Of a stretch of 42,418 nt of DNA, positions 1,682-42,418 are shown piece by piece. Within the stretch, counting starts at the first letter, position 1; each line of letters opens with the position of its first letter. Origin of the DNA: a virus (lineage: Duplodnaviria; Caudoviricetes); IMG/VR virus record IMGVR_UViG_3300037137_000910, positions 1-42,418 of that record. One strand, given 5' to 3'. The notes below the pieces were generated by a model. That model was not told where the DNA came from. It made no database searches and saw nothing but the letters and a program-made list of their open reading frames with translations. Both the position numbers and the translations under genes were made by a program.

Positions 1682-1689
1682 CTTGTCTC

Positions 1690-24441: not shown

Positions 24442-24858
24442 ATGAGAACGCTACTGATAGCCGCGCTGCTCTTGACCGCGATGCCCTGCATGGCCGGGGA
24501 GGCGGCGAAGCCGACGAAGGCGGAGCAGATCCAAAAGCTGGAGAAGCGGCTGGCCGCCCTCCCAGTCATCATTAAGGACTACGAGAAGCAGGCCGCCGAC
24601 AATTCGGACCCCATGATCGGCAAGAACCTTAAGAAGCTCATTGAAAACCACCGGGCCGAGGCCGGGCGGATACCCGTAGAGATCGCATGGCTCCGGGGTG
24701 AGGTCACCCTTGCTGGTTGCGAGGCCAAAGTCAAGGCGGCGCAAGAGGCCGTGGACAAGGCCGCCGAAAAGGCCAAGCCGGACGCGCAAAAGGCGCTGGA
24801 CAAGGCTCGGGCGGAACTCGAACTGGTGAAGGGCTTTGAAGCCCGGGGCGAGTTCTAG
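24442..24858 (+). CDS. Secreted/periplasmic coiled-coil protein
   Basis: Signal peptide MRTLLIAALLLTAMPCMA, helical body, GAGGGG RBS. Confidence 0.8.
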   Translation: MRTLLIAALLLTAMPCMAGEAAKPTKAEQIQKLEKRLAALPVIIKDYEKQAADNSDPMIGKNLKKLIENHRAEAGRIPVEIAWLRGEVTLAGCEAKVKAAQEAVDKAAEKAKPDAQKALDKARAELELVKGFEARGEF

Positions 24859-25764: not shown

Positions 25765-27927
25765 TTATCTCCCGTCGAGCGTGTATTGGGTGGTGTCCGC
25801 CTCGCGGTCCAGCCGGAAGCTGCGGATGCAGGCGTTAAGTTGCATCGCCTGGCGGTTAGGGGCCTCGCCGGATACGGAAAGCTCGCCGACCAAGTGCCCT
25901 ATCGGCCAGGGGTCTATCCGAAGGCCGGTTAAGACCAGCACCCCGGAAATGTTCGGAGAGTTCTTTATCTCCATCCGGTAGGCCATTTCGGCAGCCAGGG
26001 CCGCGGACTCGTTGACAACCATATCGGGAACGGCGGGAGTGCCGAACGTGTCATAGGCGGTAGGCTTGCCGGCCGTCGGATCACCATCGCCGTTGACGGG
26101 CAGAACGCAATGGATACGCTCCGCGTTGCGGTATTCGTTCCCGCCGTCAAAGAAGAATTCCCGCGCGCGGGCGCTGGATACGGTCTTGTCCACTACCGCG
26201 TCAATCGGCTCCGCGGTTTCAAGTCCCATGGTAACCATGATGTGATAGGCTACGGGCGTGGTGGTGTCCCCGTTCCACGTCCAGGGGGTTGCGCCGGTTC
26301 GGGCCTCTTCAGAAAGTAGAATGCCGGTACAGTCGGGCAGAACCGTTACCCCGACGTGGACGGGGCGCGGTTCCCAAGACGCGCCGCCGTTGGTTGACCG
26401 GAACACCAATGGGTCAAGGGGCGCGAGCCGGGGGACGCTATCATAGGCCCCGCGCTGTGACCATCCTTGGGTTATGAGGCGGCGCAAGCCTGGGTTGTTG
26501 CCGGCGGCAATCATCTTCTTGGCGTTGCCGTTGAATACGTATGTGCCCCAATTGTAGCCGACGGGGACGCGATAGCGGCGGTAGACGTTGCGGTACTTGT
26601 CGTCCTTGAGTGCGTCGGCGTTCTTAGCGGCGACAGCGGCCACATAGGCGGTCACGTCGCTATCGGAGGCGTCCATGACCAGAGACGCGGGGGCATCTTC
26701 GGCAAACTGCTCCGGCAACGTGGTCAGCGTCGTTTCGACGATTCGGCGGCGGCTTACGGCATAGCCGCGGTTGAACCACTCAGTCTGATCGCGGGTGATT
26801 TTCCCGTCTAGCACATCCGGCGCGGCGTCACTGACGGTCTGCCCGTAGTCTCCCCACGTATAGTCTAGCAAGTCGGGAGTTCCGGCAACCGCGCCTAGAC
26901 CTTCATGGACGTTGAAGCAGACGATATCCGATTTGTTCCCGTCAGCGTTGGGAACTAGCGTCCAGTCATACGGCCCGGCCTTTTGCAAGAGCATGGAGAT
27001 AATCCGGGCGGTGTCAATGCCGGTGACCGCGAAATCGGACAGGAACACCCGGACGCCCAGCGAATCCACGAAAAGCCAGTATAGGTTGTCGGGGTCGGTT
27101 TCGCCGGGAGGCGTCTCGCTGGCCGCGGGCATATTGATAAAGCCGGCCATGGACAGGTGCGCGATTTCAATTGGCGGGCCGGCGAAAAAGTAGAATGCCC
27201 GGATATGATTCCAGACGTGGCCGCCCAGCCAGTAATCGGCCCACTCTTCCATCGCGGGGTCAGCCGGGCCGCTCTCCGCCGTCTGGTCAAGCCGGTTAAG
27301 CATCGGTTCAACCCATGCGCCCATGTCTTCGCTGTCTTCGCCCAGCGTAGTGCCGATCTGCCCGCGGTCCGGCTTGCCGCCCTCATTGAACGTGGTGCGG
27401 AAGCTCTTGACGAATATGGGTGTCGGCACTTCCGGAGCATAGAAGTCATAGATGTATCGGCCGTAGACCGGGGCCTTGCGCATGAAGTGGCGGTAGTCTT
27501 CGCAATGCCAGGTGGTGACCGCCGCCCCGAGGTCATAGGTCGGCTTGACTACCACGCCGATGAAGATAGGCCCGAAGGTAGACGGCGCGGCTACAGTGTT
27601 AGCCTCTACCTTGACCAGCGAGTCAACGGTAATGTGCGCGCCGGAAAAGAGCGTCCCGGTTTCGCCGTTGCCGGTTAGCCCTTCGTCGAAGTCGGCCGGC
27701 GAACCCTGCGACTTGAATCCATCCGCTTCGGTCGGCGCTTTGTTTTCAATCAGGATGCAGACGTTGGGTTGCGGGCCGCTGTAGCCCTGCAACGTCTCGA
27801 ATTTCAGTTCGGGGGCAAGCGTCCACGTGCCGGGGGCCGCGGGGTCTTTTGTCGCCGCGTAGTAGACCTTGAACTGCTGGACGGGGCGTTTGACGCCGCG
27901 AGGGTCGGGAGGCGGGGGTTCGGGCAT
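25765..27927 (-). CDS. Tail tip / baseplate hub-like protein
   Basis: 720 aa after the Dit-like gene; PIFIGVVV...CEDYRHFM segment typical of hub proteins. Confidence 0.6.
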   Translation of the reverse strand: MPEPPPPDPRGVKRPVQQFKVYYAATKDPAAPGTWTLAPELKFETLQGYSGPQPNVCILIENKAPTEADGFKSQGSPADFDEGLTGNGETGTLFSGAHITVDSLVKVEANTVAAPSTFGPIFIGVVVKPTYDLGAAVTTWHCEDYRHFMRKAPVYGRYIYDFYAPEVPTPIFVKSFRTTFNEGGKPDRGQIGTTLGEDSEDMGAWVEPMLNRLDQTAESGPADPAMEEWADYWLGGHVWNHIRAFYFFAGPPIEIAHLSMAGFINMPAASETPPGETDPDNLYWLFVDSLGVRVFLSDFAVTGIDTARIISMLLQKAGPYDWTLVPNADGNKSDIVCFNVHEGLGAVAGTPDLLDYTWGDYGQTVSDAAPDVLDGKITRDQTEWFNRGYAVSRRRIVETTLTTLPEQFAEDAPASLVMDASDSDVTAYVAAVAAKNADALKDDKYRNVYRRYRVPVGYNWGTYVFNGNAKKMIAAGNNPGLRRLITQGWSQRGAYDSVPRLAPLDPLVFRSTNGGASWEPRPVHVGVTVLPDCTGILLSEEARTGATPWTWNGDTTTPVAYHIMVTMGLETAEPIDAVVDKTVSSARAREFFFDGGNEYRNAERIHCVLPVNGDGDPTAGKPTAYDTFGTPAVPDMVVNESAALAAEMAYRMEIKNSPNISGVLVLTGLRIDPWPIGHLVGELSVSGEAPNRQAMQLNACIRSFRLDREADTTQYTLDGR

Positions 27928-28337: not shown

Positions 28338-28781
28338 TTACAACCATCCTCTCGCGCGGAAGAGCGCAAGCCCCAGCTCTTCGGCCTTGCGGGCGCAATC
28401 CTCTTCGGTCGGCGTGGGCAGCGGGGGCCGCGGGGGCATGTAGCCCGTGCCCCACTGGTGAAAGCCGGCATAGTTGTTCTGCCCGGTGTAGATGATGAAT
28501 GAAACGTAGCCCGGCCCGCGGCCTATCGTCGGGTTCATGGCGTCGGCCTGTAGTTTGCCGGTTCGGCGCTGGTCTTGGAATGGGTTGTACCCGCGGGAGA
28601 GTTTGTCCCGCACGGTAGACGGTTTCAGCGCCGCCCACGGATTCGGGTATCCCATGATGGAGAACGTTAGGGACACAAGGCCGCCCTCTTCGCACATCCA
28701 GGCAATAAGCCGGTCCTGTATCAGCTGGTCTATCTCGGCCGCCGGCGGACTCGGGGCGTTGACTTCGGTGTGATAACCCAT
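28338..28781 (-). CDS. Virion morphogenesis / tail completion protein (Mu gpG, P2 gpS-like)
   Basis: WAALKPST, TGKL, YAGFHQWGT..MPPRP. Confidence 0.8.
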   Translation of the reverse strand: MGYHTEVNAPSPPAAEIDQLIQDRLIAWMCEEGGLVSLTFSIMGYPNPWAALKPSTVRDKLSRGYNPFQDQRRTGKLQADAMNPTIGRGPGYVSFIIYTGQNNYAGFHQWGTGYMPPRPPLPTPTEEDCARKAEELGLALFRARGWL

Positions 28782-29656
28782 TAGCGCCCCGTAGACCCGC
28801 CGAAACTGCGGTCATCAGTGATAATGATTTCTTGCGGCGTTGCACTGGCGCGGCGCGCCCGGCTCTTCTGGTATTCGGCCCACTGGTTCTGACTGACACC
28901 GCGGGTTCCCAGCATCCATGATTCCCCGAAGGCGCTAACGCCCTCTTTCTTTTGTGCGTCCGAGAGCGCAAACCCGGCGGCTTCTAGGTCGAGCGCGCGC
29001 CCGAGGTTTTCGGATACCCTTTTTGCAGCCCGTTTCTGCGTCGCGCCCTGCGGGGCGGTTGACGGGGCAAACCCGCCCCAAGACTGGTCCGTTTCGGCGT
29101 TGAGGGCCGCGAGTGCCGACTGCTCCGGGGCGTTCCCGGCGGCGGCCCCCGCTTTTAGCGCGGCTACGCGCCGCCGACCAGACGCCATAGCAGACCCAAG
29201 ATCACCCTTCTCCATGGCTTCTGCGGCGGCAGACGGAGTAAGCCCGGCCGCGCGGGCCTGACCCTCCACGAGAGCAAGGCGATTCCGGCCGTTGGGTCCA
29301 AGGTCAGCTATCTTGCCGCCGAGAGTGGCCGCGCCGCGATTGATTTGGTCTAGCGCGGCGTACCACGCCTTAAGTTCGTTTTTGACCAGCATGGCCGCGC
29401 CGAGAATGCCGCCGCCGATGCCGAAGAGGGCCAACAGGCCGCGTCCGGATCGTTCAACGTGCCGGAGCTCGGTATCCCACTGGCGGAAGGTCTTGGAGCC
29501 CTCGGCCGCTCCGCCACCGCCCCCGCCCCCAGCGCCACCGCCCCCCGCGCCACCGCCGCCAGATATCCGGCGCATGGTCTTCTCAAACTCTTCCGCCTTG
29601 GAGTTGGCGGCTATGAGTTCGCTGTAGTCGAATTTCAGGGCAGCGTCAAGGCCCAT
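28781..29656 (-). CDS. Short tape measure protein
   Basis: Ala/Gly-rich helical protein with a hydrophobic stretch, after tube and chaperone genes. Confidence 0.6.
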   Translation of the reverse strand: MGLDAALKFDYSELIAANSKAEEFEKTMRRISGGGGAGGGGAGGGGGGGAAEGSKTFRQWDTELRHVERSGRGLLALFGIGGGILGAAMLVKNELKAWYAALDQINRGAATLGGKIADLGPNGRNRLALVEGQARAAGLTPSAAAEAMEKGDLGSAMASGRRRVAALKAGAAAGNAPEQSALAALNAETDQSWGGFAPSTAPQGATQKRAAKRVSENLGRALDLEAAGFALSDAQKKEGVSAFGESWMLGTRGVSQNQWAEYQKSRARRASATPQEIIITDDRSFGGSTGR

Positions 29657-30377: not shown

Positions 30378-30803
30378 CTATGCAACCAAGTCGGTAACGG
30401 CCAGCGGGTCAGCGTCACTAACTGACTGGCACTCAAAGTTCAAGACGGTATTCGCGTCCAGCTCGGCGTGTTTGACGTTGGCCGAGTCCCCCATGAACCG
30501 GCAGTTGCTAAAGACATACGCCTTGCCGGTTCCCCCCGGTACAGCCGAGTTGACATGGACGGTCAACGTCCGGGTAGTCGCCCCCTGCGCGAAATAGGCC
30601 ATCCATTCGGCCGAGCGCGTGTAGATCGCGGCCCCGGTAGTCAGGTTTGCCACGTCTACCAACTGCTCTTCGGTAGCATCGTCGGCGGTGCTGGTGATTT
30701 CGTCGCCGCCCTCGGTCGGCGCGAAGCCGGCCACTTCGTCTATCGTGTCCGCCCCGAAGGTGACCAGGGAGATATCCTTGAAAAGAACGGCCTCGACAGT
30801 CAT
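30378..30803 (-). CDS. Tail tube protein, paralog A
   Basis: 141 aa, beta-rich, aligns with 30813-31265; AGGAG RBS. Confidence 0.6.
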   Translation of the reverse strand: MTVEAVLFKDISLVTFGADTIDEVAGFAPTEGGDEITSTADDATEEQLVDVANLTTGAAIYTRSAEWMAYFAQGATTRTLTVHVNSAVPGGTGKAYVFSNCRFMGDSANVKHAELDANTVLNFECQSVSDADPLAVTDLVA

Positions 30804-30812
30804 AGCAATCTC

Positions 30813-31265
30813 CTAGCTCTGCGCCAGCGGGCAGGTATCGCCGGCCGGGCAGAAGCCCCGGAACCGGATGGAAGCCGCCGCGTCCACATCCGCGTGTTTC
30901 GGGTGCGCCCCGCCTCCCATGCACCGCGCATAGGTGTTAGCGCCGTCGCCCAGCGTGAAGGTGATATTGCCCCCGCCGGACGCGCTCTTGACCTCCACGG
31001 CCAGCGAGCCGTATGTCCCGCGGGCCGGGGCCTTCGCGCCTGCCCCGGTGGCGCCGACAGCTTGCGGGAAGTTCTTGAGATAGACCGTCGCCCCGCTGGT
31101 ATGGTCGGTGCTGTCTACGATTTCGGGTCGCTGGTTATCATCGGCGCTGGCCGCCAGTCGCTTCCCGCCGCGCTGGATATCCACGGCCACCACGCCGTCA
31201 AAGGCAAACTCGTTTTCATCCGAGTCCGTGAACACGCAAGAAACGATATCGCGGTAGAGGGCCAT
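30813..31265 (-). CDS. Tail tube protein, paralog B
   Basis: Shares GG....ADD....VD....T.GA.(I/V)Y and R.MG..A..KHA..DA...F...PLA with paralog A. Confidence 0.55.
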   Translation of the reverse strand: MALYRDIVSCVFTDSDENEFAFDGVVAVDIQRGGKRLAASADDNQRPEIVDSTDHTSGATVYLKNFPQAVGATGAGAKAPARGTYGSLAVEVKSASGGGNITFTLGDGANTYARCMGGGAHPKHADVDAAASIRFRGFCPAGDTCPLAQS

Positions 31266-31268
31266 GGG

Positions 31269-32408
31269 TTACTCCTTGTCCTTTTGCTTCTCTAGGAAGC
31301 GCTGGCGTTCCTTGCGCTGGTCAGCGACAGCCGCGGCCAGGAGCAGGGGCGGAATCGGCAGTAGGTAGCCGGTATCGTTCACGTGGAAGCCGGTAGTAAA
31401 GATGTAGGAGCCCGGCCGGGTGTGGTCAAGGGCCTTGCGGACGCCCTCCCATTCCTCTTGACTGCGGATAAGGGCGTAGTGGGTTGCGCCGAAGCCGTCA
31501 GGCGCCAGGCCCGCGCGGGCGGTGATAGGCTGGTAGTACAGCCAGTTCACGTCCTCTTCCGGCCAGCCCGAATCAAAGGCGCGCCCCATGCCGGCGATGG
31601 TTGACCGGAACGTACTGCGCTGGTGAGTCAGGAATGCCGGCTCCAGGCCGCCGGCCGCGGGGGCAAACAGTTCTGCCGCCTCTTCTGCCGCCTCCACCGC
31701 CATAGGCCCGGCGGTGGCGTCTACGATGGTCATGGATTCCTGGTGGGTTTTCTGCTCTACGGCCCGAATCACGTTGTCAATGAAGCTGGCGGTTGCGGCG
31801 AAGTCGCCGCGCCCCATGGCTTCGTCGAGCCCGTCCAAGAGGTCATCTAGCTCGCCGTCCACGTCTCTGTACTGGCCGGGGTCCATAAGAATGTCGAGTG
31901 CGGTAGCCTTGACGCCCTTTGCCAGCGCGGCCTCGCGGGTGACGGACTTGCGGAGCCCCTTGACGGCCTTGCGGGTCACGTCGGCGGCCTCTTCTTGGGC
32001 CTCGCCGATGATGGACGCCGGGCCACCGCGGTCAAGCCGATAGCGGCGGTTGAACACCTCCACTACCGCTTCCGGGTCTTCTGCGGCCTGGCTGTTGACT
32101 ACGCCCAGCTTGCCGAAAACGCGGTCCTTGAACTCCCAAAGGCGCTGGTCAGTCCGGTTGCGCGCGCCTAGCACGGCCTCATCCCAAGGGTCTATCGTAT
32201 CCGGCAGTGACGCCAGCGCCGCGGCGATGCCCCGCCGGGTTTTGCGCGCCTCGCGTTCAACCGCCGCAGAGAATTTCACCCATTGCCCCTGAATACGGGC
32301 CTCAAACTCATTGACCCCCAGCGCCAGAGCGCCGAAGTAAGCCGCCCAGGCTTCCGCGCGGCCATCCTCAATCTCCTCGCGCAGATCATCATCCGCCTCC
32401 CCGGGCAT
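31269..32408 (-). CDS. Minor capsid / head morphogenesis (MuF-like, degenerate) protein
   Basis: Long helical N-terminus; C-terminal GFHVNDTGYLLP recalls the HPNCRC motif. Confidence 0.4.
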   Translation of the reverse strand: MPGEADDDLREEIEDGRAEAWAAYFGALALGVNEFEARIQGQWVKFSAAVEREARKTRRGIAAALASLPDTIDPWDEAVLGARNRTDQRLWEFKDRVFGKLGVVNSQAAEDPEAVVEVFNRRYRLDRGGPASIIGEAQEEAADVTRKAVKGLRKSVTREAALAKGVKATALDILMDPGQYRDVDGELDDLLDGLDEAMGRGDFAATASFIDNVIRAVEQKTHQESMTIVDATAGPMAVEAAEEAAELFAPAAGGLEPAFLTHQRSTFRSTIAGMGRAFDSGWPEEDVNWLYYQPITARAGLAPDGFGATHYALIRSQEEWEGVRKALDHTRPGSYIFTTGFHVNDTGYLLPIPPLLLAAAVADQRKERQRFLEKQKDKE

Positions 32409-34946
32409 TTAGATGGCCTCGGTGTACCCTACAGCGGCCCGGATAACCGTCGCCAGCGTGTCCTTTGCGATTACTTGCGGCTCGGCTACGCTAACCCGCA
32501 AGCCGAAGACGCGGGCGCTCCAGTTGACCCCGGAGCCGTCCGCCCCGGACATAAGCTCCTGTTTCAGCGCCTCCACAAAGTTTGACGGGGCGGTTAGATC
32601 GTCGCTGGCCGACTGGTCAAACGCCTGCACTACCGTCAGTTCCGCAGTGAACCTGCCTTGTGAATGCTCCCGGGTAAGGGGTGTCAACTCGTAGGGCACG
32701 TATCGGCAGTAGACCACCGGGCCGGTAGCGAGTATGCCGGACAGCGGCGCGGCGTCGGTATGCAGGAACCGGCCGCGCTTGACGTGATCGGCCAGATTGC
32801 CGGAGACCGCCGCGGCCAGCGTTGCGCTATTAAGAATCGCCACGTATAGGTCGGCAAGGAACTTGGTATAGGAGCCGGAGGCGGTGCTTGCCGCCGGCCC
32901 CGCGGTGAACACTTTGATATTTGAGAAGCTGCGCCCGCCGGTTGCATCTTGGCTGTACGCGCAGACAAGGTAGGTGACGCCGGCGGTTAGGCCGGTTTTA
33001 TCCACTACGCCGTCGCCGGTTCGGGAGCCACCGGAAAGCCAGGTGTTCCCCGCGTCGGCGAAGGTGGAGTATAGCACCTGATTAGTAACCCCCGCGTCGC
33101 CGTCAATCGTGACGCGCATGGACGTGTCAGTCAGCCGCGCGACGGTGATATCCGGCGCGTTGGGGTAGGTGACGGGTCCGCCGCCGGCGAATTCGCCGAC
33201 CAGTGCGTTGTTATGGATTTTGTAGCCTGTACCGTCTTCGACGTGCGCGATTCCGGGGTCAACGTTGCGGGTCGCTTCGTCGGCGGCGGAGTAAATCTTG
33301 TCTCCGGTACCGACGCGGCTAACGTTGAGTTGCAACCAAGCCGCCGGCCCCCCGTTGGCCGGACTCGGGACAGCGGAAAGCGGGGTCACTACGGTATTCC
33401 GGCTGGCTTCATCTGCCGCCGAATATATTTTATCCCCCGTGCCAACCTTGCTTGCCCCGAGTTGCGTCCATGCCGCCGGGCCGCCATTCGCAGGGCTGGG
33501 GACCGCAGAGAGCGGCGTAACGACCGTGTTCCGCGTCCCCTCCAATGTGGCGTAGGCCGCGTCTGTGGCGACCAGGTTGGAGAGGTCGCCAGTCAGGCCC
33601 AGCCCGAAGGCGACGGGGCGGACGTTGCCGACCCCGAGGTTGGCGATATTCCAGTTTCCGCCGGCCGTGCTAACCACTTGGTTGCCGGTATGTGCCTCAG
33701 CCACTTCCGTACCCGTCACCGCGCCGGCAAAGTTGGTAAAGTTGACCGAGGACTGAGCGCCAGTCGGCCACGTCACCCCGAAGGCGTTGACCGTGCCCTC
33801 GTAGGCGCCGATTGAGGGCGTGGTCGCGTGGCGGGCGTTGCCTTTGATGTCGGTCGCGTCGGTCGTGTCCGCGCCGGCATGCCAAAGGACCGAGGAGGTC
33901 CGGATGCCATAGCCAGCGTCGAAGAAGCCGTTGTCGTTCTCGTTGTAGAACGCCAGTTGCGCGCGGGTCAGGGAATTCAGGCCAGCCTCGGAGCCGGTCG
34001 CATCGGTCGCGGCGCACTTGGTGTAGGTGCCGTTGGTCTTGGTCGCATAGCAACTGCCCGCGCAGTCGAACACAAGGTTATTAGTATAAGTAACACTCTT
34101 AGACGCATTGGCGATGCCCGTGTTGGTCCGGCCGATGGTGCAGTGCGATACGGTACTGGCCGCACCGGTATTGTTGCCGAATGTAATCCCCGAACTGCCG
34201 CCGCCCATTGCGAAATCGGTCAAGACACACTCGGAAAAAACGAAAGTCACAGCCAGAGTAACCGTCGAGTAGTCACCGAAGAAGCCGCCCGCGCCACCCG
34301 AGTACATCATCCGGCTAAAGGTAATCCCGCCGCCGGCGGTCCCCCCGGTGGCCTTCCAATAGAACGCGGCGGAGACATATCTCTCCCCTACCATCGTCAG
34401 GTTTTGCCAAGTCACTGCCGCCGTGCCGCTGAGGTCGTCACCAGCATACCAAAAATAAGATGTGGCCGAGTTGCCAAGGCTTATCTGCTGATTGGCCCGG
34501 CCGCCCCAACAGGAGAATACCTTGTTGGTTGCGCCGACCGAACCATTATTCAACATCGATCCGAGCGTATCCCGGTCCCACAGAATGCAGGTGTCGCCAT
34601 TGTTGGCCGCTGACACTATCGCCGCCCGCGCCAAATTGAACGACGTGTAGTAGTAGACCGTGGATTGCCGCTGCGGCGAGAAGCGGTGGGTGTTCAGCCA
34701 CGTGGACCCGGAATAGGTCAGGTCCACGTCAATGTAGAAGCCGGCGGCCTCGGTCCCACCAGTCGCCAGAATCGCGGCGCTCTCCGGTGTCCCGAGGGAC
34801 ACATTGGCAACGTAGTGAGAGGTGGTCAGCGCGGCTTGCAGAACGCGGTCCAGCGCCCAAGCCGGCCAGGTGATTCTCATCTTGCCGTCGCCGCGGTCGC
34901 TCGTGGCGCAGACGGGCGGGTAGCCGGCGATGTAATCGTTACCCAT
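32409..34946 (-). CDS. 845-aa virion protein: beta-helix + 44-aa repeats + FN3 + tail-terminator-like C-terminus
   Basis: Asn/Thr/Gly beta-helix ladder ending DIKGNAR..TPSIGAYE; FN3 signature TGLTAGVTYLVCAYS; neck-region position. Confidence 0.65.
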   Translation of the reverse strand: MGNDYIAGYPPVCATSDRGDGKMRITWPAWALDRVLQAALTTSHYVANVSLGTPESAAILATGGTEAAGFYIDVDLTYSGSTWLNTHRFSPQRQSTVYYYTSFNLARAAIVSAANNGDTCILWDRDTLGSMLNNGSVGATNKVFSCWGGRANQQISLGNSATSYFWYAGDDLSGTAAVTWQNLTMVGERYVSAAFYWKATGGTAGGGITFSRMMYSGGAGGFFGDYSTVTLAVTFVFSECVLTDFAMGGGSSGITFGNNTGAASTVSHCTIGRTNTGIANASKSVTYTNNLVFDCAGSCYATKTNGTYTKCAATDATGSEAGLNSLTRAQLAFYNENDNGFFDAGYGIRTSSVLWHAGADTTDATDIKGNARHATTPSIGAYEGTVNAFGVTWPTGAQSSVNFTNFAGAVTGTEVAEAHTGNQVVSTAGGNWNIANLGVGNVRPVAFGLGLTGDLSNLVATDAAYATLEGTRNTVVTPLSAVPSPANGGPAAWTQLGASKVGTGDKIYSAADEASRNTVVTPLSAVPSPANGGPAAWLQLNVSRVGTGDKIYSAADEATRNVDPGIAHVEDGTGYKIHNNALVGEFAGGGPVTYPNAPDITVARLTDTSMRVTIDGDAGVTNQVLYSTFADAGNTWLSGGSRTGDGVVDKTGLTAGVTYLVCAYSQDATGGRSFSNIKVFTAGPAASTASGSYTKFLADLYVAILNSATLAAAVSGNLADHVKRGRFLHTDAAPLSGILATGPVVYCRYVPYELTPLTREHSQGRFTAELTVVQAFDQSASDDLTAPSNFVEALKQELMSGADGSGVNWSARVFGLRVSVAEPQVIAKDTLATVIRAAVGYTEAI
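33270..33533. repeat. Two 132-bp (44-aa) tandem repeats
   Basis: RNTVVTPLSAVPSPANGGPAAW.QL..S.VGTGDKIYSAADEA twice. Confidence 0.92.
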
Positions 34947-35290
34947 CAGCGCACCGGCTTCAACTTGCCGTCATCGGGAGCGGCCAGCAGGGCGTCGAGT
35001 TCGGCCTTGCCGACGACCTTCCCGGCGGCGATGTCCAGCACCGCGGCATCGGTGTAGCCGAGGTCCAGGAGCGCGGCGCGGAGCTTCGACGTGGCCGGGC
35101 CGGCGAGTTCGTCAACGATGGCCGGCAAGCCGAGCTGCGCGCGCACGTCGTCGGGCTCAAGGTCTTCCTCGGCCCAGGCGAAGGTCACCTTGTCGAGCCC
35201 GCCGAAGGGCCGCGCGGCCAGGTCCGCCTCGCAGCGGGCATCCAGCAAGTCGCCGGTCATCTTGTCGCGGAGCGTCTCGTAACGCATCAC
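34946..35290 (-). CDS. Hypothetical protein
   Basis: GAGGAGG RBS, coupled to the 845-aa gene. Confidence 0.65.
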   Translation of the reverse strand: MMRYETLRDKMTGDLLDARCEADLAARPFGGLDKVTFAWAEEDLEPDDVRAQLGLPAIVDELAGPATSKLRAALLDLGYTDAAVLDIAAGKVVGKAELDALLAAPDDGKLKPVR

Positions 35291-35440
35291 CCGCCCTCCT
35301 CGCCGAAGCGCTGGGGCTCGGGCAGGCCGGCCAGCAGCCGGCGGCGCTCGCCGGCGAGGGCCAGGTCGAGAGTCACGGGCTGACCTCCCCGAACTTGCGC
35401 GGGCTTGTCCCGAAAGCTCTACACTTGTGTATAAGTGTCA

Positions 35441-35686
35441 TTAGAATTTCCCTCGGGCGCTGCCGGGCTTGCCGCCCTCGGCCTCGTAGGATCGTGACGC
35501 GCGGAGTTGCACATAGACGCCGCACTTGGGACAGCGGACCTCTGCGGACGCCCCCTCAATCAGCGCATAGGCGCTTACCGCCTCCCCGCACTGACAGGCA
35601 AAGGACAGCCGCGGGCCGCCGTTGTCATTCTCGAAGCGCGCGACAACGGGGAGCGGGCCGGGCATTCTCACGTTATCACTTTCCAA
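35441..35686 (-). CDS. Com-like zinc-ribbon protein
   Basis: FACQCG...EVRCPKCG. Confidence 0.55.
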   Translation of the reverse strand: MESDNVRMPGPLPVVARFENDNGGPRLSFACQCGEAVSAYALIEGASAEVRCPKCGVYVQLRASRSYEAEGGKPGSARGKF

Positions 35687-35960
35687 ACTTCAGCCACCCC
35701 AAGACGGCCAGCGCAACCGCTCCGCAAGCCGCCCAAAGCGCCTTGACCTTGACCGTGCAACCGGAACAGCGCTTTTCGATCTCAGTAAGCCGCGTTTCGT
35801 GCCGGCCGACAAGAAGTGCCTGGTCAACCTGATTGCCCTCTATTCGGTCAAGCACTTCGATTACGTGCTGGTTGACCCGCGCTTGCGGGGCTTTCGCCAG
35901 CGACTCCATTTCCTGAAAGGTCAGTTTCGTAGCAGCCACGGTCAAGCCTTCGGCGGGCAA
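35676..35960 (-). CDS. Holin-like protein (coiled coil + C-terminal TM)
   Basis: HETRLTEIEK followed by LWAACGAVALAVLGWL. Confidence 0.5.
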   Translation of the reverse strand: MPAEGLTVAATKLTFQEMESLAKAPQARVNQHVIEVLDRIEGNQVDQALLVGRHETRLTEIEKRCSGCTVKVKALWAACGAVALAVLGWLKFGK

Positions 35961-36568
35961 GCCGGCGTCGGGTCGAGCGTCTGCACAAGCGCGTGGAGCG
36001 CGTCGGCATTGCCGTCGGCCAGCGCCTGAGTCGCCACTACCTGTTTGATTTCAAGCGGGCTGGTGTCCGGGAGCGCGTTATAGTCCCTGATGGCCTTGAC
36101 CAGCGTGGTCCCGACAGCCCCGGCGGCCTGGATAGCACCCTTGGCCAGCGGGTAGCGGCCCACCGCCAACCCAGCCGCCCCGGTGATAATCGCCGCCCAC
36201 GGAATCTGCCAGTACCACTTGAGCCCGTCAGCAGCGGCTTTCTCGCGCGCGGCAGCCAAGTCCTTGACCGCCTGCACGTCGGCGTTGACCTTCGCCTCTG
36301 CGGCGATAAGCGCCGGGGCCAACGTGGCGAGCTGGTCAATGACCGCCTGCGTGACGGGCACCCCGGCCGTGACCTTGAGCACGATGGCGTCGTACTCGGC
36401 CTTGAGCGCCTTGTGGGCGTCCACGTGGGCCTGCGCCTGCTTGAGGAGGTCGGCGGTCTTGGACTCAAGGGCGGCGATCTGCGCCACTGCCGCGGGGGTC
36501 AGCCGCTGGCATCCGCCAGTCAAGCAAAGCGCCCCAGCCAGGACCGCCAGTAAAGCAAACTTTCTCAC
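35942..36568 (-). CDS. Lipoprotein with coiled coil and C-proximal TM (spanin-like)
   Basis: RKFALLAVLAGALCLTGG-C lipobox from GTG 36568; WYWQIPWAAIITGAAGLAVG hydrophobic segment. Confidence 0.6.
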   Translation of the reverse strand: MRKFALLAVLAGALCLTGGCQRLTPAAVAQIAALESKTADLLKQAQAHVDAHKALKAEYDAIVLKVTAGVPVTQAVIDQLATLAPALIAAEAKVNADVQAVKDLAAAREKAAADGLKWYWQIPWAAIITGAAGLAVGRYPLAKGAIQAAGAVGTTLVKAIRDYNALPDTSPLEIKQVVATQALADGNADALHALVQTLDPTPACPPKA

Positions 36569-36671
36569 TTGTGCCCCCTTCGCTTTTGCCGCTTCCGCGG
36601 CCCGCCCTTGGCAATCAGTAGCCGGATACGCAACCGCGTCTTCAGGCGTACCCACTCGCGCTTTAGCCATT

Positions 36672-37106
36672 TCAAGGCCCAGCCCGGCGAACGAGTTTCG
36701 CAAGCGCCGTGACGTTGTAGACGGCCTCCAGGCCGGTCATATCCCAAGAGCCCTCTCCGGCCGGCACGGTATAGTACCTGTCGGCCGCGGTAACTTGGTT
36801 AACCCACCGGATGATGTCATTTTCAGAGATAGCCCCGGTGAACGCGCCGGTCCCGGCCCGCGCGTCTGCGGCTTGCCGCGGAATCTCAAAGCGCCGCCGT
36901 TCCGGCTCCACCACCAGCCCGCTTACCATGTGCGGGTTAGTCGAATCCTGGTCAGTCAAGCACCACAGGATCACCTCGGCCTCACCGTCATGGGCAAGGC
37001 CGATTTGGGAGCCTAGCGCCTTTGCGGTTGCCAGCGCCGCGGCGGCGATAGCGTCGCGTATCGCGTTGCGCGCGTGACCGTCGAGCAAGGTAGCCGGCGC
37101 GGCCAT
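36672..37106 (-). CDS. Head closure / stopper-like protein
   Basis: Size and position after the adaptor. Confidence 0.45.
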   Translation of the reverse strand: MAAPATLLDGHARNAIRDAIAAAALATAKALGSQIGLAHDGEAEVILWCLTDQDSTNPHMVSGLVVEPERRRFEIPRQAADARAGTGAFTGAISENDIIRWVNQVTAADRYYTVPAGEGSWDMTGLEAVYNVTALAKLVRRAGP

Positions 37107-37525
37107 TAGCGCACCAATCGGCCCGTGCTGTCGCCGGAGCCGTCAAGCGGCTTGACGATATCCGGGGGTGCCTCTTCAATTTCAATGCCGACCAGCTTGC
37201 AGATTTCGGAGCGGAAGTATTCAATTTCCTTGGCGTAGTCAATGTTTGCGCCGTAGGCCCCGCCGACCACCTTGAGGCTCGGGTTGCTCTTGCGGGCAGT
37301 ATAGGCGTCGAGGTAGGTTGCCAGTTCCGCCAGTGCGCCAGCAGAGAGCGCGGTCAGCCGGGTGTCAATGTACCCCTTGGCGGTGGAGTACGTCCAGATA
37401 ATGGAGGTGGTTTTGATGTCGAAGACGCTAAACCAATTCCACCGGACGCGATAGCGCGTATTGCCCTCCCCCTTCAGGCCGACGGCAAGGTAGCACTGCT
37501 GGGTTTCAGAAGCGGTAAGCGCCAT
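37106..37525 (-). CDS. Head-tail adaptor-like protein
   Basis: MALT..E start, helical, first structural gene after the glycan cluster. Confidence 0.5.
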   Translation of the reverse strand: MALTASETQQCYLAVGLKGEGNTRYRVRWNWFSVFDIKTTSIIWTYSTAKGYIDTRLTALSAGALAELATYLDAYTARKSNPSLKVVGGAYGANIDYAKEIEYFRSEICKLVGIEIEEAPPDIVKPLDGSGDSTGRLVR

Positions 37526-37526
37526 G

Positions 37527-38132
37527 TCAGATTCTCCCCAAGTGAACGGCTAGATAGTTCCGGGCGCGCGCGGGGTCCGGCGTTTCAGACACATACCGGA
37601 GCACCTGGCCGCCGGCGGCGCGCGCCATGGCGGCTATCTGCTCGCGGGCAAAGGTGGAGCGCGCGTCAATCATCGCGTGAACCTCCGGGATAGACATTCG
37701 CGGGTCCGGCCCGGTCGGCTCGTTAAAGTGCAGGGCGAAGATACCGCCCGGCAAGAGCGCCGGGATAACCCCGCAGAGTTGCGCTTGTAGGGCTTCGGCC
37801 GGCATGTGCGGGCTAACCCAATAGGACAGCGCCAGGTCAAAGGCGTTCCCCGGCAAGTGCCGCGGGTCAAGGTAGCCGGGAACCGGGACGCGCCGCAAGG
37901 CTTCGGGGCAGATATCCAGGGCGGAGCACAGCCAGCCGCCGCGCGTCAGTTCCCGTATCCACTCGCCGGTGCCGACGCCGATGCATAGTATCCGCGCGCC
38001 GGGCTGTACCAGCGGGCCGACGCCCAGGAACTCAATGTGCGTCTGGAGCGTGGAGCCCGACAGCGCCCCCGAGTCGCCGGGTTGGCAATGCACCCGCGCC
38101 CAATAGGCGGCGAGTTCGGCCTTGACGTTCAC
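37527..38132 (-). CDS. Class I SAM-dependent methyltransferase
   Basis: ILCIGVGTG, ALDIC, FDLA, LLPGG. Confidence 0.85.
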   Translation of the reverse strand: MNVKAELAAYWARVHCQPGDSGALSGSTLQTHIEFLGVGPLVQPGARILCIGVGTGEWIRELTRGGWLCSALDICPEALRRVPVPGYLDPRHLPGNAFDLALSYWVSPHMPAEALQAQLCGVIPALLPGGIFALHFNEPTGPDPRMSIPEVHAMIDARSTFAREQIAAMARAAGGQVLRYVSETPDPARARNYLAVHLGRI

Positions 38133-38785
38133 GCGGCCACCTTCGGCCATACGGGCTTACCATCGTCGCCGTAGATTTGGCCCACGAAGCCATCGTAAGG
38201 CGGGTGCGCGGGGAACGGCTCGGCCGACCATTGCAACGGCACAATGGAGCTATGCGTCAAGAGGCTCCTGGATACGTGCGGGTAGATAGCCGATTCCATG
38301 AAGCGCTGATCGTCCATGTAAGACGCCGACTGACCGCAGCGGGTCGTAACCGCGCCGTAGAGCGCAATGGGGATCGCCAGTTCCTTGATACCCCACATGC
38401 CCCCCATAATCGGAACGCTCCGGTGATACGGGTGGTCATGCATGGAGTGGGCGGTTTTGCCGGAGTCAAGCCAAGCTTTGACGGCGGCGGCCTCCCGGAC
38501 GTTCAAGCGGCTATCGGCATCGCGGAAGATGATGTGACTTGCCGCGGGGGCATCCCAAATCGCCAGGAGCCGCCAGAACATGCCGGAAGCCCCGAGGCTC
38601 GGCCCCATGCGTACAACGTGGACGCCTAGCCGCTCCAGTTCGGTCCCGTCCAGCCCTTGCTCCAGGTATACGCGCATGTGCCAGTCCGGATAGACCGTCG
38701 GCCAGAGCCGGGCGTTTTCGACGGCGCCCTGGATATAGCGCGGGGCGTCGCCATAGACGCAGAACGAAATGATTTTGAGGCTCAT
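38129..38785 (-). CDS. Putative DxD glycosyltransferase
   Basis: IISFCVYG, MFWRLL, FRDADSRL, HDHPYH..PIMGGMWG, DQ. Confidence 0.65.
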   Translation of the reverse strand: MSLKIISFCVYGDAPRYIQGAVENARLWPTVYPDWHMRVYLEQGLDGTELERLGVHVVRMGPSLGASGMFWRLLAIWDAPAASHIIFRDADSRLNVREAAAVKAWLDSGKTAHSMHDHPYHRSVPIMGGMWGIKELAIPIALYGAVTTRCGQSASYMDDQRFMESAIYPHVSRSLLTHSSIVPLQWSAEPFPAHPPYDGFVGQIYGDDGKPVWPKVAA

Positions 38786-39441
38786 GGCCGCGCCTCGAAG
38801 AGCCGGTTGCCGATGGTGGTTGCGTGGAGCCGATAGCCTAGCTCCACAAGGTATTCGTCGGGGCACTTCGCCAGGCTCGCCGGGCGGCTGGCCCACTTCT
38901 CGGTCATAATCGGATTGGTGGTAAACCCGCCCTCCACGCAGACAAGGCGTGGGCGGTAGCGCTTCCAGTCGAGGGTTTGCAGGACTATCAGGTCGTAGCC
39001 TTCGCAATCCACGGTGAGGAAGTCAATGTGCCGGTCCTTGGCGTGTTCGTCGAGGATTTCGGTCAGCGGGGCCAGGGTAGTAACCTGTTCTATGAACGTC
39101 GCGCCATACTGGCCGATGCAGCGGTCCCGCCACTCGGGGTCAAGCGTGGAGAATTGCGCGCGGGAGGGCAGCGGCTCGGTGTAGAGCGTCGCCATGTGGC
39201 GGTAGGGGCCGACGGCTAGGTTAACGCAGGTAACGTCGGGGCGGTCCCTGTACTTCGCGGCCAGCGCGGCAAAGGGCAGCGCCGACGGTTCAATAAGCAA
39301 CCCGCTCCACCCGCGCGCCAGTAGCTCCTCACTGCAAGAATTCAGGTGCCCGTCGTTAGCTCCCACGTCTACCACGAAGCCCCGCGGGGTGTCCTTGAAA
39401 TAGGCCGCAAGCACGGCGTCTTCTGTGTATTGACTAGGCAC
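38782..39441 (-). CDS. FkbM-family methyltransferase
   Basis: SQYTED, VDVGANDG, GWSGLLIEP, IDFLTVDCEGYD, RPRLVCVE. Confidence 0.92.
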   Translation of the reverse strand: MPSQYTEDAVLAAYFKDTPRGFVVDVGANDGHLNSCSEELLARGWSGLLIEPSALPFAALAAKYRDRPDVTCVNLAVGPYRHMATLYTEPLPSRAQFSTLDPEWRDRCIGQYGATFIEQVTTLAPLTEILDEHAKDRHIDFLTVDCEGYDLIVLQTLDWKRYRPRLVCVEGGFTTNPIMTEKWASRPASLAKCPDEYLVELGYRLHATTIGNRLFEARP

Positions 39442-40228
39442 AGGCCGCGATCCTTTCGCGCCAGTAGCCGAGCGTTAGCTTGTGCATGGCGGGGGCGTCG
39501 AAGCGGGCGGCAAGCACCGGGCGCTCCGCCGCAAGCCGCTCCGGTGTCACTTCGGCCCAATCGTCAACCAGCAGGGCCGGCATGTCATCTAGGACCTTCA
39601 TGGCCCGTGACCGCTTGACCACGGGGATACTGCCGAGCGCTATGGCCTCCCAATGCCGGTGACAGTCGGGGCCGGCTCCGGGCGGCGAAAGCACGTAGTC
39701 ACAGGCGGCGATATCGGCGTAGAACTTTTCGGGCGGGACTTGATGGGCAGTCAAAACCCAATCCCGCCAGGCGGGCCGGGCGAAGTGATACCACGTATTC
39801 AGCCGGTCGGCCATCGGCCCGTAGGCTTTGTGATGCTTGCAGAAGTTGACATAAAGCGCGGCCTTGGCTGGCGGGCGCGGCTGGCGGGCTTGCTTGACCA
39901 GACAACCGAGCATGTCAGCGGAGGAGATGAACCCGATAGGCAGGGCCTCTACCCGCGGGCTGGCGGTGTCTACGTTGTTTGAGAACCAGCGAAGCACGTT
40001 GGCCGGGAGTGCCGCGGCTACGGTGTCCGTTACTGAGGCGTCACTGAAAGAGGAGAGCAGAACGCAAGGCCCGCCACGGGCCAGGGCATCAAGGTTCTTG
40101 CCGACGAAGTGCGTCCGGCAATACCGCACGGCCCCGGAGTCGGGGACCGTCTCCGCGCGATGATCCGCGCCGGCCAGATCGGCAACCCGCTGGCAGTCTA
40201 TCCAGTCGGCTTGCCAGTCGAGGTTCAC
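39434..40228 (-). CDS. Exostosin/GT47-like glycosyltransferase
   Basis: LPIG, LYVNF, YVLSPPGAGPDCHRHWEAIALGSIPVV, PALLVDDW. Confidence 0.82.
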   Translation of the reverse strand: MNLDWQADWIDCQRVADLAGADHRAETVPDSGAVRYCRTHFVGKNLDALARGGPCVLLSSFSDASVTDTVAAALPANVLRWFSNNVDTASPRVEALPIGFISSADMLGCLVKQARQPRPPAKAALYVNFCKHHKAYGPMADRLNTWYHFARPAWRDWVLTAHQVPPEKFYADIAACDYVLSPPGAGPDCHRHWEAIALGSIPVVKRSRAMKVLDDMPALLVDDWAEVTPERLAAERPVLAARFDAPAMHKLTLGYWRERIAACA

Positions 40229-40998
40229 TTGTAGCGTTCCTTGAAAGCGACGGAGAGATTGGAGTGCCGATCCCATTGATGAATAACGCAGGGGATACCC
40301 GCTTCGTTATGAAGCAGGCCGTTGGCATCCGGGGTCAGCGACTCGCGCGGCAGATAGCCGACGGTGTAGACCGGCCCCTTCTCATTCTCCCAAATCGTAC
40401 AATTTGGCTCTGCGGTGTAGAAGCCGACTTCATGCTGCGCCTGGTCAGTCAGCATGAGGTTATGGCCCTTGCGCGGCCCCTTGAAAATCCGGTCCCAAAG
40501 GCGGAAGCAGTAGGTCGCGACTTCGGCCCCGCCGCCGGCGATAGTGCCGGAGCAGATGATAGGCTTCGTGTGCAGCCGGGTCAGCATTTCCGGGCCGAAG
40601 TAGCCGGTGACGGCTGGGCCGTTATACGGGCAGTCACCGATGGTCATTAGGCGGCATTCCTCGAAGGAATGCAGGCCGGTTGCGGGCATGTTCTTGGCCG
40701 GGTCGGTTTGCCAGATAAGGTCGCGGAGGTCGCAGACGATAACCTGATCCGGCATTTGCGGGAGGTCGCGGAGGTAAATCCAGTATTCGCGGAAGCGGAC
40801 GTTGCCGACGTGGAAGTCGGCGGGCACGATGAACGGGAGCCACTTGACGCGCAGGCCCTTGAAGCATGGCCAGTTAGCCGAGCCGTCACCCAACAGGACA
40901 AGTTCCCCCGCGTAGCCTGTGCGGGCAAGGGACACGGCGAAGGGGCGGACCTGCTCCTCGGTGTAGTGCGTTGCGGCGGCCAGGATGATGCTTGTCAC
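40225..40998 (-). CDS. GT-A fold glycosyltransferase (PLOD-GT-like)
   Basis: VCDLRDLIWQTDP, ICSGTIAG, DQ, IHQWDR. Confidence 0.75.
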   Translation of the reverse strand: MTSIILAAATHYTEEQVRPFAVSLARTGYAGELVLLGDGSANWPCFKGLRVKWLPFIVPADFHVGNVRFREYWIYLRDLPQMPDQVIVCDLRDLIWQTDPAKNMPATGLHSFEECRLMTIGDCPYNGPAVTGYFGPEMLTRLHTKPIICSGTIAGGGAEVATYCFRLWDRIFKGPRKGHNLMLTDQAQHEVGFYTAEPNCTIWENEKGPVYTVGYLPRESLTPDANGLLHNEAGIPCVIHQWDRHSNLSVAFKERYK

Positions 40999-41678
40999 TT
41001 GCCCGCCTCCTGCACAAACTTTGCCAGTTGCCGATAGCCGTCAAGCCAGTTGGGGGTATTGGCGTCGTAAATCCAGTGGAGCGTTACCGGGGCGCCGCAG
41101 GGCTCGAAGTTGTTAACCACGTCCCAGATGCGCCCGTAGCTGCGGCCGGAAAGGCTCAGAACGATGGACAGGCGACCGGGCTTGAGGTGCCGCAACCCGG
41201 CGGAATCGGCAACTTCGTTCATCCCGTGTACCCACTGGACGCGCGTATTCCCGAGCATGTCAAGCAGTGGCTGGGTGTAGACGTTGAACGGGCAGATGAA
41301 ATGCCGGGGATCGTATCGGGTTATGCGCTCCATGATGGCGTCGCACTTATCATATTTGGCGCGGAGCGTTGCGGCGTCGGCGTCGCCGAACTCGCCTTTG
41401 CCGCCCGGACCCCACAGGACGCCGACCTTTTTCCAATCGCCCGGCCAGCTAAAGCCGTGGTCGAAGCCGTGCATGACCGCCGCGCCCGTCGGGCCGAGGT
41501 GCTTATTGAGCCAGGCAACGTCAAAGCCCGAGTCGAGCAACAGCGGCGAAACCCCGAGGATATACTGGACGCCGGCGGCGTTGAAAATGTCCAGCGGCTT
41601 CTCCAGCCAGATATAGTCAACGTCGCGGCCCCGATGCCCGTTGGGGAAATCGTCAAGGCGGATTAGCGGGGCGGTCAT
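40995..41678 (-). CDS. Polysaccharide deacetylase-like (CE4/DUF2334)
   Basis: IRLDD, MHGFDH, FICPFN, TLHW. Confidence 0.8.
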   Translation of the reverse strand: MTAPLIRLDDFPNGHRGRDVDYIWLEKPLDIFNAAGVQYILGVSPLLLDSGFDVAWLNKHLGPTGAAVMHGFDHGFSWPGDWKKVGVLWGPGGKGEFGDADAATLRAKYDKCDAIMERITRYDPRHFICPFNVYTQPLLDMLGNTRVQWVHGMNEVADSAGLRHLKPGRLSIVLSLSGRSYGRIWDVVNNFEPCGAPVTLHWIYDANTPNWLDGYRQLAKFVQEAGK

Positions 41679-42418
41679 TTGGACACCAGATAGCCGGGGA
41701 AGTTAGCGCCCCAGCGGGCGCGGTAGAGCGTTTCATCCGCGCCGATAGTGGCCTTGATCCGCTCGTGGTGCGGGGCCTCGACGCGCGTCCGGGTCCAGTG
41801 GTTATGCCGCTGGCAGAGGTTCGGAACTTGGTAGAACCGCTCTAGCTTCTTGGCAACGTCTTGGAGTTCCTTGTCACAGAAGCAGTGGTTGTAGCCCTCG
41901 AAGTACGGGCCGGAGCCCCCATAGGTCCGCTCGATGAACTGGCGGCCAATCCAGGGGGAAATGCAGCAGGTATCGAAGGCCCCGAACTTGTCACCCGTCG
42001 GCTGCATAACCCCGTAGTCATCGGGGAAGTGTTTGTGGTATCGGTCAAGAATCTCCGGGCCGGGCGTCTGCGGGTCGGGCTCAATGTCATCGCCGGCTAC
42101 GCAGACAACCTTAGCGCCGCGCTTGATAGCTTCGGCGCACAGCATGTTAGCCGCCGCCGGGAAGCCGCGCCACTTCTCTTGACGGATGATGAAGTCGGCC
42201 CCGGGGATATCGGCTTCGCCCTCGACCAGCAAGCCGACGTGATAGCTCAGGTCGCGCCACTTGGCAACTTGCCGGGATGCAATCTCCGGCTGGCACGTGG
42301 GCCAAACGACCCACGGCTTATTGCGGTAGACCTTCGGAGCGCCAGCGGCATTGATCTGCGTCTTGAATCGATAGGCCCCGCGGGTGTGCAGGATGATAGG
42401 CTTGGCCTCGGGAATCAT
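41675..42418 (-). CDS. 3' part of the 624-aa multidomain glycosyltransferase (GT2-like domain)
   Basis: GFPAAAN, VAGDD, HCFCDKEL, HNHW; in frame with 1-1258 across the junction. Confidence 0.88.
   Translation of the reverse strand: MIPEAKPIILHTRGAYRFKTQINAAGAPKVYRNKPWVVWPTCQPEIASRQVAKWRDLSYHVGLLVEGEADIPGADFIIRQEKWRGFPAAANMLCAEAIKRGAKVVCVAGDDIEPDPQTPGPEILDRYHKHFPDDYGVMQPTGDKFGAFDTCCISPWIGRQFIERTYGGSGPYFEGYNHCFCDKELQDVAKKLERFYQVPNLCQRHNHWTRTRVEAPHHERIKATIGADETLYRARWGANFPGYLVSK
42292..42418. repeat. Terminal direct repeat, copy 2
   Basis: Identical to 1-127. Confidence 0.97.

Follow-up and report, generated by a model that had tools for sequence, protein, structure and literature searches.

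We analysed a window of 42,418 nucleotides (nt), the full length of the IMG/VR virus record IMGVR_UViG_3300037137_000910 (Duplodnaviria; Caudoviricetes), and find a cassette of seven coupled enzyme genes between the gene for the major capsid protein (MCP) and that for a probable head-tail adaptor. The cassette, whose enzymes are soluble, is likely to work in the cytoplasm, where it would build on virion proteins a short glycan that is methylated and probably contains xylose. A sequence-only reading of the window had proposed a coupled cassette of about 6 kb between the capsid and adaptor genes; the coordinates and the synteny with a relative, locus L104, bear this out, and the measured length is 6,023 nt. 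The window carries a 127-nt terminal repeat, an assembly overlap, and therefore represents a circular phage genome of 42,291 nt, with the cassette running across the junction of the circle. All genes of the capsid-to-adaptor stretch lie on the minus strand, as do the terminase (5786-7054), portal (4208-5782), scaffold and capsid genes, which were identified by Pfam/PHROG. The features are listed below in their order on the circle, with the tail-tube genes last.

1738-2778, minus strand: MCP of 346 amino acids (aa), upstream boundary of the cassette and candidate acceptor; Pfam PF20036 (Gp13-like), E 7e-12, and PHROG 247, E 2e-14
1699-1722, minus strand: 9-bp GC-rich hairpin after the capsid stop, with no U tract; z -3.79, 0/200 shuffles equally stable
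1251-1711, minus strand: two small accessory open reading frames (ORFs) of 84 aa (with Cys pairs) and 68 aa; no match in L104
659-1258, minus strand: domain 1 of a 624-aa three-domain glycosyltransferase (GT), weakly like GT42 sialyltransferases, MptE (DUF115) and WaaZ; ESM Atlas and hhalign
53-655, minus strand: domain 2, GT-A with a DxD motif, best structural match PBCV-1 A064R-D1; AlphaFold model of the L104 ortholog
41675-42418, minus strand: domain 3, GT-A (GT2-like), continuing from 128 across the junction; structure match of the L104 ortholog
40995-41678, minus strand: putative de-N-acetylase of CE4/DUF2334 type, 227 aa, accessory; ESM Atlas and motifs
40225-40998, minus strand: putative GT-A enzyme, 257 aa; motifs only
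39434-40228, minus strand: A075L/GT114-like GT-B enzyme, predicted to be inverting and of UDP-xylose type; phmmer, profile and Pfam
38782-39441, minus strand: FkbM-family methyltransferase, accessory, absent in L104; PF05050, 61 bits, and TIGR01444, 48.6 bits, both over cut-off
38129-38785, minus strand: GT-A enzyme with an RDxD motif, 218 aa, candidate initiating transferase; AlphaFold pLDDT 96.8
37527-38132, minus strand: class I S-adenosylmethionine (SAM) methyltransferase, 201 aa (207 aa from the ATG at 38150); PF08241, 23.6 bits, cut-off 21.2
37106-37525, minus strand: probable head-tail adaptor, 139 aa, downstream boundary; 37% identical to the L104 gene at the same place
30378-31265, minus strand: two paralogous probable tail-tube genes, candidate acceptors; mutually 31% identical (E 8e-11), no family match

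From the first small ORF through the gene at 37106-37525, every joint is an overlap of 1-8 nt or a spacing of 1 nt. The claim that all genes are joined thus stands for this stretch but not for the capsid gene, which is separated from the first small ORF by a 26-nt gap (56 nt counted to the ATG at 1681) that houses the 9-bp hairpin. This hairpin may lower expression of the downstream genes. It was not scored as a terminator in the terminator scan, and L104, with a capsid-GT spacing of 1 nt, has no room for one. The terminator and promoter scans gave no excess over shuffles, with two promoter-like sites found in 35000-42418 against 1.4 expected, and no RNA run is listed as containing the stretch. 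Among DNA runs, one, labelled sediment metagenome, covers the stretch in full and may be its source; three more cover fragments of it only. The name adaptor for 37106-37525 comes from position and size, as this protein has no family match in Pfam or PHROG. The GC content of the cassette and its GC content at third codon positions (GC3) are those of the structural genes, so we rejected a recent foreign insertion.

None of the seven cassette proteins has a 19-residue window with a hydropathy above 1.53, a crude proxy that agrees with the reported lack of evident signal peptides or transmembrane segments. Also in line with the sequence-only reading, Pfam and PHROGs gave no genes for nucleotide-sugar synthesis, flippases or Gtr proteins among 57 window ORFs and ORF pieces, a scan that left smaller and alternative-frame ORFs aside. 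The cassette proteins themselves have no PHROG.

The enzyme at 39434-40228 had been taken for an exostosin/GT47-like GT. It is indeed a GT-B enzyme, but of the A075L/GT114 kind. It matches the A075L structures 8q8i, 8avq and 8asa by phmmer (E 3e-16, residues 56-261, covering both Rossmann domains) and with a profile of 10 homologs (E 3e-38), and A075L is its sole solved sequence relative at E <0.3. The Pfam match to RXYLT1_C, at 27.3 bits, is barely over the cut-off of 27. According to the available excerpts of PMC11571054, the GT114 enzyme A075L serves PBCV-1 as beta-xylosyltransferase for the capsid glycan of Vp54, transferring xylose from UDP-Xyl to L-fucose, with D73 as the catalytic base and N148, R158, G203, R208 and E211 as ligands of the donor (phosphate/uracil/ribose). 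These six residues correspond to D63, N123, R142, G186, R191 and E194 of the window protein; R142 is paired with R158 by the profile register, and the phmmer alignment is shifted by two there. D63, R142, G186, R191 and E194 are invariant (10/10 homologs), and N123 is kept in 9/10. The enzyme would probably transfer xylose from UDP-xylose.

The three-domain GT had been predicted across the junction, where a 624-aa ORF does run from 1258 to 41675 with no internal stop. Because its L104 ortholog is a single contiguous ORF of 634 aa, the gene is real and not an assembly artefact. Domains 2 and 3 were modelled by AlphaFold as the L104 ortholog, which is 57% and 51% identical to the respective window domains. 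In a VIA comparison of this model, domain 2 ranked PBCV-1 A064R-D1 first among 48,161 chains (Z 17.6, root-mean-square deviation (rmsd) 3.2, 183 aligned residues), with the next match at 15.2. Its D69-V70-D71 is invariant in 9/9 sequences, and Pfam PF03407 is matched at E 0.008. Sharing the A064R-D1 fold does not tell which sugar domain 2 adds. Domain 3 gave Z 15.8 to WrtF and 15.4 to PcManGT, and its G74-D75-D76 is invariant in 9/9. PDB sequence searches with profiles of domains 2 and 3 returned nothing meaningful. Domain 1 is weakly linked to GT42/MptE/WaaZ-like folds: the nearest named ESM Atlas clusters score 0.90 (MptE-like, 34% of members) and 0.87 (MptE/WaaZ), and an indirect two-step comparison leads by hhalign to phage domains (83.5%), whose profile in turn matches CstII at E 1e-4 over ~30 residues. 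The model of domain 1 is of low confidence.

GT and CE4 folds had been expected for the cassette. A GT-A fold is found for three domains (domains 2 and 3 and the RDxD enzyme) and a CE4-type fold with metal motifs for 40995-41678, but for 40225-40998 the GT-A label comes from motifs only. The window's own RDxD protein has GT-A enzymes as its top Foldseek and VIA matches (Z 14.2). ESM Atlas places 40995-41678 at TM 0.70-0.80 to DUF2334/Polysacc_deac_1 models; D9, D10, H70, H74 and H201 are invariant in 3/3 sequences, which we take to be the Asp-Asp, His-x3-His and late catalytic His motifs of CE4 enzymes. This protein has no Pfam match, and its profile found nothing meaningful in a PDB sequence search. 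In the putative GT-A enzyme at 40225-40998, D90-x-R92-D93, C149-x-G151 and H240-Q241 are invariant among 48 homologs and D185-Q186 is at least 90% conserved; 2/48 members match PF03407 weakly (E 0.02), hhalign to GT-A families stays below 5%, and its profile has no PDB match. Profile-profile comparisons between the GT-A families of the cassette all gave <5% probability, so either these families are separate or the alignments are too shallow. Both predicted methyltransferases, FkbM and class I, score over curated cut-offs, and the class I enzyme is 47% identical to its L104 and 44% to its L100 counterpart.

The sequence-only reading had suggested looking for the same capsid-GT-adaptor arrangement in other viral genomes, and it recurs in L104, in the order capsid, three-domain GT, CE4, GT-A, GT114, RDxD, methyltransferase, adaptor. 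Six of the seven cassette genes thus occupy the same slot there, without FkbM and the two small ORFs. The L104 enzymes are 41-57% identical to those of the window, more than its capsid (34%) or portal (33%). Domain 2, domain 3, GT-A, GT114 and RDxD form a core that was found in viral, genome and metagenome collections on tailed-virus contigs of 32-69% GC. In 29/46 loci of the metagenome set with enough downstream sequence, domain 3 follows domain 2 within 1.7 kb.

Upstream genes were counted in 29 distinct loci that have tblastn matches to domains 2 and 3 and at least one selected upstream ORF tested; duplicates, L100 and short contigs with upstream ORFs not tested were left out. The upstream gene could be labelled in 19/29 loci, and in all 19 it is a virion gene. 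Five of these are head genes (L104, L026, L151, L155, L156/158), 12 are tail genes (L018, L019, L021, L023, L025, L036, L099, L107, L128, L137, L147, L154) and two encode an unspecified virion protein (L022, weak; L150). Ten loci have no upstream label (L024, L114, L125, L127, L132, L140, L146, L152, L160, L163). Domains 2 and 3 stand behind head genes of other capsid families in L026 (Phage_cap_E), L155 (PHROG 371) and L156/L158 (PHROG 758). A stronger argument than the locus count is that at least three capsid families, unrelated to one another, occur at the head slot.

Tailoring genes vary among these relatives and include one to four sulfotransferases, radical-SAM enzymes, other methyltransferases and short-chain dehydrogenase/reductase (SDR) epimerases. 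The L018-L026 cassettes (also L020-L022) and L151 carry sulfotransferases, often with a radical-SAM/SPASM enzyme and a conserved unannotated gene of ~225 aa. In L018-L025, the ~225-aa gene behind domain 3 might be taken for an ortholog of the CE4 gene; we rejected this, as it belongs to a different family. L100, from an assembly labelled Planctomycetaceae, gives the best identity for the GT114 gene (55%) and includes in its cassette an SDR that, among NCBIfam models, scores best against UDP-xylose synthase (176 bits, below the cut-off of 294).

Gene order, coupling, the folds or families of most enzymes, their intact motifs and the placement in virion operons of unrelated phages are observed. 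From these we infer the following order of steps, including its late timing, its host-supplied donors and its acceptor. Late in infection, in the host cytoplasm, one of the GT-A domains would act as initiating enzyme and place the first sugar on a Ser or Thr of a head or tail protein. Our first guess for it is the RDxD enzyme, because some of its homologs are fused to a PqqD domain. PqqD domains are peptide-recognition elements, and in 5/88 RDxD homologs (P0054, P0057, P0063, P0064, P0071) a C-terminal PqqD domain scores over cut-off, which hints that the family can take peptide acceptors, perhaps in clusters for ribosomally synthesised and post-translationally modified peptides. Each remaining GT domain would draw on the nucleotide sugars of the host to add one sugar. 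By analogy with A075L and A064R-D1 in PBCV-1, this is probably xylose for the GT114 homolog and probably another sugar for domain 2, and domain 1 may set a Kdo- or sialic-type cap. The CE4 enzyme would strip an N-acetyl group and the two methyltransferases would cap hydroxyls, a slot that sulfotransferases may fill in relatives. The resulting coat would alter how charged and sticky the particles are and how well they withstand proteases, decoys or grazing in sediment. The glycan had been described as long, but no polymerase was shown and a short, defined chain would suit the six transferase domains, so this part of the claim is unsupported.

Two sets of proteins had been named as acceptors. 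Thr or Ser stands in one near-C-terminal column of all three tube sequences (the two paralogs and the single G001 counterpart) and is terminal in two: tube paralog B ends in Ser, as had been pointed out, and the G001 protein in Thr. This lends mild support to the tube proteins, but the shared residue could equally be structural. The Ser/Thr segments of the capsid, in contrast, are not supported. Three MCP homologs are 36-81% identical; only T4 and T75 are invariant in the two Ser/Thr stretches (4 sequences), and the capsid's Ser+Thr content of 15% lies inside the 12-19% of several other virion proteins of this phage.

Several observations weigh against virion glycosylation or against parts of the scheme. 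The capsid ends in Gly in 5/5 homologs, with no terminal Ser or Thr. The initiating enzyme is a guess only, and the PqqD-fused homologs come without genomic context. In the GT114 homolog, the acceptor-contact residue N202 of A075L is replaced by A185 and the donor-contact T150 is also not kept, so the sugars it uses cannot be read off. Domain 1 resembles Kdo/sialyl transferases of the lipopolysaccharide (LPS) type. The 19 labelled loci are not independent, as the slot changes only 2 times on the domain-2 tree compared to 7.7 after shuffling (39 rows, rough bootstrap). In L083, a distant homolog lies between clamp and clamp-loader genes on its upstream side and tail fibres on its downstream side, the RDxD homolog of cyanophage S-SRM01 (33%) lies in a GT island, and Chlamydiae genomes (L101, L102, 10001-10560) hold a lone domain-2 homolog (39-40%). 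Finally, tblastn of five cassette queries against 50,697 cultured-phage records matched no mycobacteriophage record at sequence level.

It is also possible, if unlikely, that the enzymes act on the cytoplasmic face to alter a glycan of the host surface (LPS core, glycolipid, S-layer or capsule precursor), which host flippases would then export, and so block superinfection or re-adsorption of progeny. Transferases for LPS and lipooligosaccharide that act on the cytoplasmic side need no membrane segment, and the absence of such segments from the cassette remains compatible with a lipid-linked host acceptor. The WaaZ/CstII-like domain 1 fits this explanation, and in the 12 loci where the module lies beside tail genes it might co-vary with receptor choice. 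Excerpts of PMC12801897 interpret cyanophage GT islands in this way. However, with their coupling between capsid and neck genes, the enzymes would presumably be made shortly before lysis, the 35000-42418 region has no excess of promoter-like sites, and neither a flippase nor a Gtr gene was seen in the scanned window ORFs. The combination that marks Gtr-type serotype conversion (flippase, bactoprenol GT, polytopic membrane transferase, temperate phage) is not seen, and a tyrosine integrase was found in 0/5 records tested, including the window genome, G000 (some of these are fragments, and the search did not extend to serine recombinases).

A second alternative, that the cassette makes a free or non-covalently bound glycan or else a small glycoconjugate, which might be packaged, set free at lysis or serve as a signal, seems to us quite improbable. 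It would account for the lack of an identified initiating protein-GT, for the presence of the module in head and tail slots alike, which does not obviously track one acceptor gene, and for the radical-SAM enzymes added in relatives. In Foldseek, the tandem GT-A domains do match the polymerases LARGE1 and K4CP, but at rmsd >13, which reflects the presence of two GT-A domains. There are no export or chain-length genes, and the nearest relatives of solved structure work on a capsid glycan.

That the cassette glycosylates packaged DNA, as a sugar hypermodification expressed late with packaging, is very hard to credit because the known route needs a 5mYOX/TET or thymidylate-synthase-like (ThyS) enzyme (available excerpts of bioRxiv 2023.12.21.572611) and searches of G000 for the ThyA/dCMP-hydroxymethylase family (PF00303), ThyX (PF02511) and 2OG-FeII_Oxy_3 (PF13640) were negative with positive controls; replication genes are upstream in 0/19 labelled loci, and what speaks for it are the phage's four DNA methyltransferase genes, one of C5 type, and the location of some DNA-glycan gene clusters near structural genes, per the same excerpts. 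A search of G000 for Tet_JBP (PF12851) also gave no match, but its control was silent too.

The logic of glycosylating the virion from a few genes is already known from Cluster O mycobacteriophages, and the enzymology proposed here is closest to PBCV-1. In the available excerpts of PMC4351075, the Cluster O phage Corndog has O-methyltransferase and GT genes (gp35-38) within its head module, and excerpts of PMC11600133, PMC12363180 and PMC12619734, citing Freeman 2023, describe GT-type enzymes of mycobacteriophages that modify capsid as well as tail tube. Like Corndog, Che8 and Myrna, the window phage is a tailed phage with its own GTs and O-methyltransferase and inferred virion targets, and as in Corndog the genes lie inside the virion module. 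Where Corndog has three GTs and one methyltransferase, the cassette has two methyltransferases, six GT-like domains and also a deacetylase, and it sits after the capsid gene, whereas the Corndog genes lie between portal and protease. The claim that it is more elaborate than described phage systems therefore holds against the four Corndog genes (PMC4351075), but the concept had already been shown in mycobacteriophages. Unlike in mycobacteriophages, the capsid has no C-terminal Ser/Thr, the phage is a non-actinobacterial one from sediment, and the modification is a predicted one.

With the Vp54 machinery of PBCV-1 (A075L/GT114, A064R, A061L, A111/114R), the cassette shares soluble cytoplasmic GTs, the A075L homolog with its catalytic residues, an A064R-D1-like fold, a three-domain enzyme and two methyltransferases. 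In PBCV-1, according to excerpts of PMC9614988, the distal xylose attributed to A075L receives a rhamnose from A064R-D1, and the terminus is then methylated by A064R-D3 and A061L. The window differs in being from a tailed prokaryotic virus with a compact operon, in adding CE4 and GT42-like domains, in having no sugar-nucleotide genes in the scanned genome, and in a three-domain protein whose content is not that of A064R (GT-GT-MTase). Glycan sites in PBCV-1 are on Asn, whereas the capsid here has no NxS/T sequon. DNA hypermodification clusters (5mYOX/ThyS plus GT; excerpts of bioRxiv 2023.12.21.572611) likewise use phage GT-A and GT-B enzymes with host sugar pools, and this genome has a C5 methyltransferase elsewhere, but no enzyme forming hydroxymethyl bases was found and the cassette stands in a virion operon. 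The 'LPS-like' GT islands of cyanophages (S-SRM01, S-SCSM2R) are similar in that the S-SRM01 RDxD homolog lies among GTs and an FkbM gene. Those islands are variable, and belong to T4-like phages of the 200-kb class with their own sugar-synthesis genes, while the window shows an ordered, conserved core in a 42-kb genome.

The full cassette is present in 0/50,697 cultured-phage records, which gave isolated distant single-gene matches only. A capsid scan of viral contigs found no relative with a single protein query and one distant locus with an alignment query. No description of the cassette, or of GT114 in tailed phages, was found in the literature searched, which has little coverage of subscription journals. 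More tentatively, small tailed viruses that infect sediment bacteria, and perhaps archaea, may use a mobile chlorovirus-like module, whose enzymes are shared with giant algal viruses, to cover their particles with glycans (xylosylated, deacetylated, methylated or sulfated). The pathway would be autonomous and would glycosylate proteins in the cytoplasm by means of several new families of GTs, among them a peptide-directed initiator.

If true, virion glycosylation would be a common trait of environmental tailed viruses, and not a mycobacteriophage oddity tied to mammalian antibodies, so that another explanation (adsorption, decoy avoidance, stability, grazing) would be needed. It would also link the glycosylation enzymes of phages and giant viruses. 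The all-soluble 6-kb cassette is small enough for laboratory reconstitution, and at least four of its enzyme domains have no Pfam family (domain 1, domain 3, 40225-40998 and RDxD), which makes them of interest for glyco-engineering. It further gives a testable function for many phage GT contigs without DNA-modification partners (~65% in the excerpts of bioRxiv 2023.12.21.572611).

Cassette contigs occur in assemblies labelled Planctomycetaceae (L100), Thermoplasmata and Methanomassiliicoccales, and viral-looking contigs with cassette genes come from archaea-labelled assemblies (L098, L099, L103; P0026/P0094). This may mean that the module is used by tailed viruses of archaea, or else that the bins are contaminated. 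The matches of L098 are the same as those of the viral locus L023, which carries sigma-70-like and DnaB genes, so the bin labels may be wrong. Within the L018 cassette are two NUMOD3/TnsA-like homing endonuclease genes (3893-4591 and 9318-9992), a possible vehicle for cassette mobility.

A few other genes of the window should also be mentioned. The 42-kb genome holds four genes for DNA methyltransferases (an adjacent pair of N4/N6 type, one of C5 type and one of PHROG 757) and a DUF5131 gene (10749-12975, 15640-16572, 22770-23468). Between portal and scaffold, 3596-4207 encodes a basic 203-aa protein of no assigned family that is absent in L104. The tail module (28781-29656, 30378-31265, 25765-27927), in which no family matches were found, is unusual: besides the two paralogs that probably encode tube proteins it has a putative tape measure of only 291 aa, which suggests a very short tail; G001 apparently has one tube gene and a 347-aa counterpart of the tape measure. 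The gene at 32409-34946 encodes an 845-aa Ser/Thr/Asn-rich protein (19% S+T, 9 NxS/T) whose C-terminal 235 aa are 49% identical in L104 and whose N-terminus differs. It could be a variable head or neck appendage and a further candidate glycan acceptor. It is followed by a conserved 379-aa protein of no assigned family (31269-32408), and a 302-aa terminal tail protein (24855-25763) has an adenovirus-fibre-like repeat (PF06536, E 1e-8).

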